From Schmidtea nova (Eukaryota): a stretch of DNA of 64,000 bases. Made by a program: the position numbers and the translations under genes. Under the pieces are notes generated by a model. The model ran no database searches, was not told the origin of the DNA, and was given only the letters and a program-made list of their open reading frames with translations. Positions 30,201 to 31,511 of this stretch are shown here, piece by piece. Numbering within the stretch: the stretch's first letter is position 1; each line of letters opens with the position of its first letter. The DNA lies in NCBI GenBank assembly GCA_044892505.1, contig CM097882.1, forward strand, positions 487,692,001-487,756,000, in the 5' to 3' direction.

Positions 30201-30720
30201 AATCAAAATGATTGGGACGAATACGTAATTCAATGCATATACATCCATAATATCACTCCAAATGAAACAACAGGGTATTCACCGTATTACTTAATGTTCT
30301 TAAGAGAACCAGCAACACCAATAGATACAATTTTTGAACCTCGAGTATCACAATATTTAGACGCACCAGATTATGTCACACTAATGCAGGAAAAACTGCA
30401 AGAAGTGTATAAAGAAGCTAATTTAAAAGTCAAATTTAGACAAGAACAGTACAAAGCCGACTATGACAAAAATAGTAAACCACATAACTTTAAAGTAGGT
30501 GATAATGTTAGACTTATGTCACCACAAGTAGGAAAAGGAAAAACAACAAAGCTAGCAATACCATATAAAGGTCCATACGAAGTAATAAAAGTAATAAATG
30601 AGAATCTACACCTACAAAAACATAAAAATGAGGATCCAATAGTAGTACATGTTAACAGATGCAAGTTAGCAGAGGCAGAGGTCACGATAGATAAACCTCA
30701 CAAGTATAATCTTAGATCTC
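27294..30720 (+). pseudogene. pol: Element A pol (PR-RT-RH-IN)
   Basis: LVDTGA; RMCIDYRKLN, PFGLTNAPATFQ, YMDD; TDASG, EKECYA, TDH; HDGALGGH...CNACTIC, AMDF, TDKGTNF, LVERFN, GPY. Stop at 29373 (L*KHK) and damage near 29590-29650. Confidence 0.96.
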
Positions 30721-31511
30721 ATAACAAGCTAATAATATCGGATATCTTCCTAACAATCATAACAGTTGTTGGTTCAACCAAAACAATAGAATATGACAGA
30801 TTATTAATAAAAATATCAACAAACGAAGTCAGAGTATTTATCATAAACAGGGGAGTAATTGACATATACATGCAAACAACAGATAAAGAAAATCCAAAGA
30901 TGATAAAAAGAAAAGACGACAGTACAACCAAAGAAATCAAAAGAGGAAACTATGTTAACTTCACAAAACTAACACCTAATACAATATACAGAATTTGCAT
31001 ACAGAGAGACACAGATACAACAATATAGAGATGCAAGAGAATAAAAACAGAACAATTATCCAAAGATCTAAGCATAACAACAACAACGACGACAATAACA
31101 CCAGATAGAACAGAAAGCACAAGAACAAAGACAACGACAGCAAATAATATATTAAATACCACTGCACATATAGACAAAATATCAACAAACACTAGAATAA
31201 CAAAATTCCAAAAACAACAACAAAAACAAAAATATATCAAAATAAAACAAGGAAAACTAATAGTTATACATAACTTAGAGGAACTACAAGCATTTCAAAA
31301 AAAGGATAAAAAGCCACATTGGCCACATTATGTAATCACAGCATCGGTAATAACATTAGCAGTCTTAGCTTTAGTAACTAGCACACAAATATACAAAAAT
31401 TACAAATGGAAAAGGCAGCGGTATCGGAGCCGACTGGTCAAAGATGTACCAGGACATTTCCATTTGGGTAAATACATACCTGGCATATACACATTATCAA
31501 CACAAGTATGA
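30720..31511 (+). CDS. Type I membrane protein module in frame with the integrase: signal-like segment, FN3-like domain, Thr-rich stalk, TM helix, basic tail; one in-frame stop at 31026-28
   Basis: LIISDIFLTIITVVGS; NYVNFTKLTPNTIYRICIQ (FN3 L.P.T.Y.+.+ motif); ITTTTTTITPDRTESTRTKTTTANN; WPHYVITASVITLAVLALVTST; KNYKWKRQRYRSR. Confidence 0.7.

Follow-up and report, generated by a model that had tools for sequence, protein, structure and literature searches.

What is encoded where the reading frame of a gypsy-type retroelement of Schmidtea nova runs on beyond its integrase, and what might the product do? Here we report an analysis of that region (positions 30720-31511, forward strand) in a window of 64,000 nucleotides, which is the whole stretch of DNA that was analysed. 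A first-pass annotation had proposed that a second, attachment-like membrane protein is fused in frame to the integrase C-terminus and pairs with the fusogen of the element in the manner of paramyxo- and pneumoviruses.

The host element

The element spans positions 21154-39020, including a nested insert of 4.6 kb, and measures about 13 kb without it. Its 5' LTR (21154-22244, TG...CA) is directly preceded by the 4-bp target duplication ATAG, which also follows the 3' LTR (37977-39020), and a tRNA primer-binding site starts at 22247. The LTRs with their target duplication, the primer site and the order protease, then reverse transcriptase, then RNase H and lastly integrase (PR-RT-RH-IN) are those of a Ty3/gypsy LTR retroelement. 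The LTR pair is 99.1% identical (9 mismatches across 1,042 aligned bases) despite the many internal stops, the frameshifts and the nested insertion in the window copy.

All internal features lie on the forward strand. Gag with its CCHC knuckle and a spacer (22394-24616) contains stops and frameshifts in the window copy; where copies are intact, the one polyprotein ORF begins with it. It is followed by a Bcl-2-like segment (24617-25063) just ahead of the first internal signal sequence, by a gB-type (class III) fusogen with a transmembrane (TM) segment (25253-27282), which lies between gag and pol and is fragmented in the window copy, and by PR-RT-RNase H-integrase with a GPY/SH3 tail (27249-30719), locally broken in the window copy and ending in a YxLRS motif (30702-30719). 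Beyond the region of interest there are two 3' accessory ORFs, one of 191 aa with no family assigned (31630-32205) and one with an ISG20/DEDDh exonuclease-like segment (ISG20 E 0.0032) and an acidic tail (32202-33374); the ORF that matches the latter in a second family of the same genome (family B, see below) has RNase_T matches at E 0.001-0.004 (L088:6231-7775; L089:6540-7790). The nested insert is an env-less gypsy element (33357-37956) with 198-nt LTRs and a 5-bp duplication, CCTGC, and is outside the present finding. Elsewhere in the window we noted another small gypsy element on the minus strand (17078-20761), decayed related pieces at 39900-42500 and 43660-48250 (a family B-like gB/protease fragment and a Gag ORF, together with an LTR-like stretch in inverted orientation that resembles the LTR of the element described here) and, by eye, DNA-transposase-like fragments at 54000-61800.

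By its Pfam match the fusogen is classed as a gB/chuvirus-like class III protein, not a paramyxovirus F: PF24664 was found with E 1e-16 and 1e-29 in the window copy and with E 1e-87 at residues 938-1583 of an open-frame ORF. A gB-like env between gag and pol is the arrangement of the GAG-ENV-POL HSV/gB-type errantiviruses, and the closest listed env is that of Smed_errantivirus_3 (45 of 67 residues match the window gB, counted by eye). The Bcl-2-like segment matched PF00452 with E 0.0093 in the window copy and 1e-5 in an open-frame copy, and its best PDB match was Bcl-xL (E 0.0066). In some genomic copies the segment exceeds the Pfam cut-off (residues 834-897 of L061). It adjoins the gB signal, the remnant of which could serve as its tail anchor.

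The single Gag-Bcl2-Env-Pol ORF is shared with Burro elements, but the element does not reach their size of >30 kb, and its ORFs gave no BIR, MATH or ankyrin Pfam matches. On these sequence characters it is classified as a Burro-like Gag-Env-Pol gypsy element near Smed_errantivirus_3, Burro-like and not Burro proper. A high-copy Burro1-like family was also encountered (L107-L114, two genomic sites), with a protease and ankyrin ORF followed by TRAF-like and IAP-like ORFs, by a coiled-coil ORF with the C-terminus ETFV and by a further ORF of its own that has signal, coiled coil and TM (P0027). Burro-like elements in the genome, taken with the likeness of the window gB to Smed_errantivirus_3, point to a planarian host. 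In two copies of this BIR/TRAF family no reverse transcriptase or integrase was found near the BIR gene in frames of at least 200 aa.

The module downstream of the integrase

Positions 29652-31511 read as one frame (with an X at the break) through the integrase, its GPY/SH3 tail and the YxLRS motif. The frame then continues into a run of hydrophobic residues, a domain rich in beta structure, a stalk rich in Thr, a TM segment and a basic tail, and the sole internal stop lies at 31026-31028. A DNA search of the same genome yielded 284 candidates and 40 scored matches, from which 30 loci were fetched, 29 of them besides the window copy. The frame from the integrase to the end of the module is open in 21 of these 29 copies and broken at other places in the remaining eight; the stop at 31026-31028 occurs in none of the 29 and is damage private to the window copy. 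Also peculiar to the window copy is a charged residue in the hydrophobic core of the signal, which is absent from 12 aligned open-frame copies. Breaks are as frequent in the module (1.13 per 1000 codons) as in the 500 codons upstream (1.19), which is what would be expected of two regions that start to decay only once the element has inserted. The proposed fusion to the integrase thus stands, and in most of the other copies, to which the first-pass annotation had referred the question, the module is present and in frame.

A protein search with the domain gave 150 scored matches, and for 26 of these (counted by eye) the match lay in an open frame with a length of 3,054-3,082 aa. The order in the intact ORF is Gag, Bcl-2-like segment, signal, gB-type fusogen, TM, PR-RT-RH-IN, second signal, FN3 domain, Ser/Thr stalk, TM and tail, and exactly four hydrophobic segments were present in ten of ten full-length frames. 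Pfam recovers Gag knuckle, Bcl-2-like domain (E 1e-5), PF24664 (E 1e-87), PR, RT, RH and IN in this order in one open-frame copy, so that Gag, Env, Pol and the module are parts of one polyprotein, in which the last 270 residues of an ORF of ~3,070 aa constitute a conserved signal-FN3-stalk-TM-tail unit fused to the integrase. Between residues 2700 and 2830 of one open-frame copy there is a single Met, at 2739; since it lies inside the integrase, the module lacks its own start codon and would become separate only after cleavage. A second membrane protein is therefore predicted, as had been suggested, but it is not a separate one at the level of translation.

The module begins with the second internal signal sequence (30720-30776), which has a basic n-region, a hydrophobic core of ~13 residues and small residues at the likely cleavage site, the same profile (basic n-region, 13-residue core) as the signal ahead of gB. 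The FN3-type domain (30777-31052), which contains the private stop, is followed by the stalk with a juxtamembrane segment (31059-31328; Ser/Thr-rich to ~31208, S+T 0.41 in the window copy), by the predicted TM helix (31329-31385) with 8 K/R within the next 20 residues, and by a predicted cytosolic tail of 41 aa (31386-31511), which ends in STQV, where the polyprotein terminates at its natural stop. Of all 40-mers of the polyprotein, the one richest in Ser/Thr lies in the stalk in each of the two open-frame copies examined (0.33 and 0.43; background 0.11). The ectodomain carries sequons and a cysteine pair (one N-glycan sequon and two cysteines in the window copy). Hydropathy and a positive-inside charge pattern around both signals and the last TM fit a type I membrane glycoprotein, which the module is predicted to be; this layout, outlined in the first-pass annotation, is kept in the family and recurs in distant families.

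Modelled alone from ten natural open-frame copies, the domain folds into a sandwich with seven core strands (pLDDT 74.7, pTM 0.68). Among 48,161 chains it superposes best on an FNIII domain of sDscam and on ED-B of fibronectin, with Z 8.6 and an rmsd of 2.6-2.8 across 80-85 residues; this Z score barely exceeds the range of 7-8 that the structure-search tool calls common. FN3, fibronectin or its consensus design is named in 35 of the 50 rows of the match list and another kind of sandwich in four; the further 11 rows are what we take to be FN3-bearing receptors. The best Foldseek match was the FN3 domain of CDO (E 6.9e-4), and receptors for cytokines and for adhesion (IFNAR2 D2, Tie2, Dscam, CDO) are among the closest folds, at 10-22% identity. 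Pfam fn3 scored below its cut-off (14 bits vs 25, E 0.062) and covered residues 53-75 only. A model of the whole module has the same FN3 leaning (Z 7.5; E 6.8e-4) at a pLDDT of 40, too weak to count as support.

Two FN3 signatures are a tryptophan in strand B and the motif L-x-P-x-T-x-Y in the E-F loop. The latter is present in the domain of the window element; the former is absent in the window family (family A) and present in family B. The strict pattern L.P.T.[YH] occurs exactly once per polyprotein, and only in the post-integrase ectodomain, in five of the seven polyproteins scanned, with a chance of 0.004-0.019 per ectodomain for a motif that was chosen after the sequences had been seen; P0002 has two looser versions. 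The model makes an FN3-type fold of the ectodomain very probable, in keeping with the FN3-like strand pattern originally noticed.

The module is coding sequence under purifying selection, yet the fastest-changing part of the polyprotein. Between subfamilies, dN/dS is 0.38-0.44 (about 0.4) for the module as a whole, with 0.12-0.15 for the signal, 0.33-0.44 for the domain, 0.73-0.94 for the stalk and 0.14-0.22 for the tail, compared with 0.01-0.04 for gB and 0.02 for the integrase; one copy was compared with four others, so these comparisons are not independent. Ectodomains are ~80% identical, whereas gB is 96-100% identical. Synonymous divergence between L061 and three other copies (L064, L065, L068) is 0.06 in gB and 0.32 in the integrase, which points to recombination between subfamilies around env.

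Recurrence in distant lineages

Family B of the same genome has ORFs of ~3,400 aa with RT-RH 50-52% identical to that of the window family. A signal, a beta-rich ectodomain of 285 aa, a stalk, a TM and a tail follow its integrase in frame. This holds for 11 of 14 loci in one set and for 13 of 20 in another, the remainder being broken copies, and dN/dS of the ectodomain is 0.15-0.24. The nearest Atlas clusters of this ectodomain are fn3 (score 0.88), which we take as a lead only; four family B ectodomains gave no Pfam match. Eight public polyproteins were also found, two of which (P0006 and P0007) end before the integrase and were left out of the count. The same layout is present in five of the six that reach past it (P0002, P0003, P0004, P0005 and P0008), whereas P0009 extends past the integrase but has neither signal nor TM. 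RT-RH identity between the window element and the distant polyproteins with this layout is ~50-55%. P0008 carries a bacterial label, which probably reflects contamination.

Ectodomain length ranges from ~180 to 390 aa across lineages, and no significant sequence likeness was detected between the ectodomains (hhalign of family A against family B, E 0.48); the best phmmer match was E 1e-4 in a set of 11 sequences. Their common origin therefore rests on position, layout and one short motif. From these we infer shared ancestry across lineages; repeated capture of host FN3 exons is a possible alternative. A mixed alignment of families A and B was discarded because the strands were misaligned. An RT tree of 13 rows, built without named references, left the six lineages unresolved and had long branches flagged, and we therefore claim no order of events. 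The module alone had no match among 1.84 billion representatives, one further search with it gave a single match through the integrase tail only, the truncated piece from the window gave no usable Atlas match, and profiles A2 and A4 gave nothing significant against PDB sequences.

Class I PDZ-binding sequences have the C-terminal consensus S/T-x-V/I/L. S/T-x-V ends are found in three of six lineages, namely family A (STQV/STLV), family B (ETFV/ETIV) and P0002 (TSWV, common to 14 other listed members of its cluster), and are absent in P0003, P0004, P0005 and P0008. At a chance of <0.03 per lineage, the three C-termini are putative ligands of the class I PDZ type.

P0002-P0005 and P0009 have an extra aspartyl-protease-like domain (D-[TS]-G) between the integrase and the second signal, or its position, and three such domains per polyprotein. 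A Y-x-[LI]-R motif closes the integrase in every lineage and recurs ahead of the second signal in P0002. In the form YxLRS it presumably resembles the chromatin-binding (nucleosome-binding) site of foamy virus Gag; alternatively, Y-x-[LI]-R may mark a protease site.

Possible functions and known systems

By topology rules, under which successive hydrophobic segments alternate between the sides of a membrane, the polyprotein would pass four times through the ER membrane. Gag would remain cytosolic together with the Bcl-2-like part, the first signal would direct gB to the lumen, and the TM of gB would bring PR-RT-RH-IN back to the cytosol; the second signal would direct the FN3 domain and stalk to the lumen, and the last TM would leave the basic tail in the cytosol. 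Pol would then form a loop on the cytosolic side that the multi-pass polyprotein anchors at either end, an unusual construction for the particle of a retroelement. Cleavage by signal peptidase would release a second type I glycoprotein, produced in the same amount as gB and in the same membrane, and the integrase would stay tethered by the signal remnant until released by the protease of the element, a need that the extra protease-like domain between integrase and second signal would fit. An FN3 head on a glycosylated stalk could act as an adhesion or attachment factor, holding the particle, or the budding membrane of the producer cell, against the target for fusion by gB, and the PDZ-type C-terminus of three lineages may steer the glycoprotein to junctions or to a polarised surface.

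We tentatively favour the reading that the module is a co-translated type I glycoprotein that tethers the particle or the producer cell to the target cell, and rate it at slightly less than an even chance. Counted against it are the modest structural Z of 8.6, the dissimilarity of the ectodomains across lineages and P0009 with neither signal nor TM, as well as the fact that rhabdovirus-type class III fusogens act without a partner. BFVD matches were weak (herpes gI, CMV UL7-UL10 and cowpox haemagglutinin, all with rmsd above 17 Å), and viral proteins of such shape are often accessory rather than attachment proteins. The absence of a PDZ-type end in P0003, P0004, P0005 and P0008 also counts against it. 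Counted in its favour are the FN3 fold, the purifying selection on signal, domain and tail, and the same layout across lineages; the ectodomain is also far more variable than gB, a parallel to phlebovirus Gn relative to Gc as described in the available text of PMC9094657. We regard as doubtful the more elaborate proposal of a two-part entry system new to gypsy elements, in which Pol would be flanked, within a four-pass polyprotein, by a fusogen of class III and by an FN3 protein of host origin that binds a receptor, with routing to junctions by the PDZ tail and spread from cell to cell. If it were true, gB-type errantiviruses would have in the FN3 head the trigger or tropism factor, comparable to gD/gH, that they have so far lacked.

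Another explanation places the module outside entry. It could be a host-modulating accessory glycoprotein, a captured FN3 receptor fragment at the surface of the producer cell, where it would mimic a cytokine or adhesion receptor and serve as a decoy or modulate signalling, in the manner of CMV RL11 or adenovirus E3 proteins. The cytokine and adhesion receptors among the nearest folds speak for such a role, as do the weak BFVD matches to RL11-family and gI proteins, a tail more constrained than the ectodomain, and the other host-control modules of the element and its kin (Bcl-2-like and ISG20-like, and the TRAF and IAP ORFs of the Burro1-like family). But fold matches at 10-22% identity name no ligand, and the ISG20-like, TRAF and IAP proteins are separate ORFs, whereas six lineages retain the module within the structural polyprotein, at a ratio to gB of one to one; we consider a decoy unlikely. 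A packaging device, in which the second signal and the last TM fasten the two ends of Pol to the membrane at which budding occurs, the tail links it to Gag or host scaffolds and the FN3-stalk is a folding or trafficking spacer without a ligand, would suit the low dN/dS of signal (0.12-0.15) and tail (0.14-0.22) beside a nearly neutral stalk, the variable ectodomain length (~180 to 390 aa) and the additional protease domain that five relatives have next to the anchor. It is nevertheless distinctly unlikely, as the TM of gB already anchors Pol and every module-bearing lineage retains a folded domain of presumed FN3 type, with dN/dS values that show selection (family A, 0.33-0.44; family B, 0.15-0.24).

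Two further alternatives carry less weight. A one-to-one ratio of Gag, Env and Pol is odd for particle assembly, and the module might be made mainly from spliced or subgenomic RNA as an independent protein, its fusion to the integrase being incidental. According to the available text of PMC10309623, Cer1 splices CERV from a one-ORF genome out of the region after the integrase; but the in-frame fusion is kept in all six lineages and there is no Met near the second signal in the family A copy checked, which makes this route highly unlikely. It concerns expression rather than function and can coexist with the tethering reading. That the module is a non-functional read-through extension of the integrase, like a membrane protein in appearance only, would agree with the lack of Pfam matches above cut-off, of relatives among the 1.84 billion representatives and of a usable Atlas match. 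It is scarcely credible, being already contradicted by selection (dN/dS ~0.4) and by conservation across lineages; 21 of 29 copies are open and the fold is confident.

The module is a concrete candidate partner for entry by gB-type errantiviruses, hidden at the end of 'pol' and conserved across lineages ~50-55% identical in RT-RH. Should the head bind a host receptor, it would offer a handle on the cell tropism of abundant planarian elements and on the capture of host adhesion domains by retroelements. According to the available text of PMC13524379 (Chary and Hayashi), HSV needs gD and gH/gL, and the way in which gB-type errantiviruses enter cells is described as unknown in view of the dependence of herpes gB on partner glycoproteins.

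Several features of the element have precedents. GAG-ENV-POL HSV/gB-type errantiviruses are reported from flatworms, bryozoans and nematodes, and Smed_errantivirus_3 and its kin likewise combine a gypsy Pol with a gB-type env between gag and pol in multiple copies (PMC13524379); the available text names no membrane protein after the integrase, and 'fibronectin' has no occurrences in the main text. Burro/GYPSM1 (Arkhipova and Yushenova, PMC6431247) likewise has one huge ORF with Gag, a Bcl-2-like motif, an in-frame env and PR-RT-RH-IN, besides accessory ORFs, and the available account names neither FN3 nor a second membrane protein; unlike these giants, the window element measures ~13 kb without its insert and its polyprotein has no BIR, MATH or ankyrin match. 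MDG1-group sORF2, as far as the available text of PMC11952523 goes, is an extra retrotransposon TM protein for cell-to-cell transfer, but it is short and found in env-less elements. Cer1 CERV is an in-frame ORF after the integrase, but a nuclear RNA-export factor, and 'transmembrane' has no occurrences in the available text (PMC10309623). The Gag-Env-Pol gene order is thus already published, whereas the available texts of the literature searched do not describe a membrane protein with FN3 domain that is fused behind the integrase, and the word 'fibronectin' is absent from the two key papers.

A second glycoprotein in a retroelement had been called unexpected, which does not hold: Atlas virus, a belpaovirus of hookworm, already produces a variable Gn-like and a fusogenic Gc-like glycoprotein from a single Gag-Pol-Env polyprotein, according to the available text of PMC9094657. 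It differs in being a BEL/Pao element with a class II fusogen and with both glycoproteins in tandem after Pol as one viral cassette (PMC9094657). The two predicted glycoproteins of the window element lie on either side of Pol instead, and the second of them has an FN3 fold of cellular type. The herpesviruses, with gB beside gD, gH/gL, gE/gI and the CMV RL11 family, likewise combine a class III fusogen with type I glycoproteins of beta-sandwich, stalk and TM; their partner glycoproteins have Ig-type or other folds and are encoded by separate genes, no sequence link was found, and the BFVD matches were weak. Paramyxo- and pneumoviruses likewise have a second, more variable surface protein beside the fusogen. 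However, their attachment proteins are of type II topology, with beta-propeller or mucin heads (RSV G is mucin-like) and a class I F partner, unlike the window element with its C-terminal TM and its PF24664 gB/chuvirus-like class III fusogen. The paramyxo-/pneumovirus-like arrangement that had been suggested is therefore not retained, and the closer analogies are probably the accessory glycoproteins of herpesviruses and Gn/Gc of phleboviruses.
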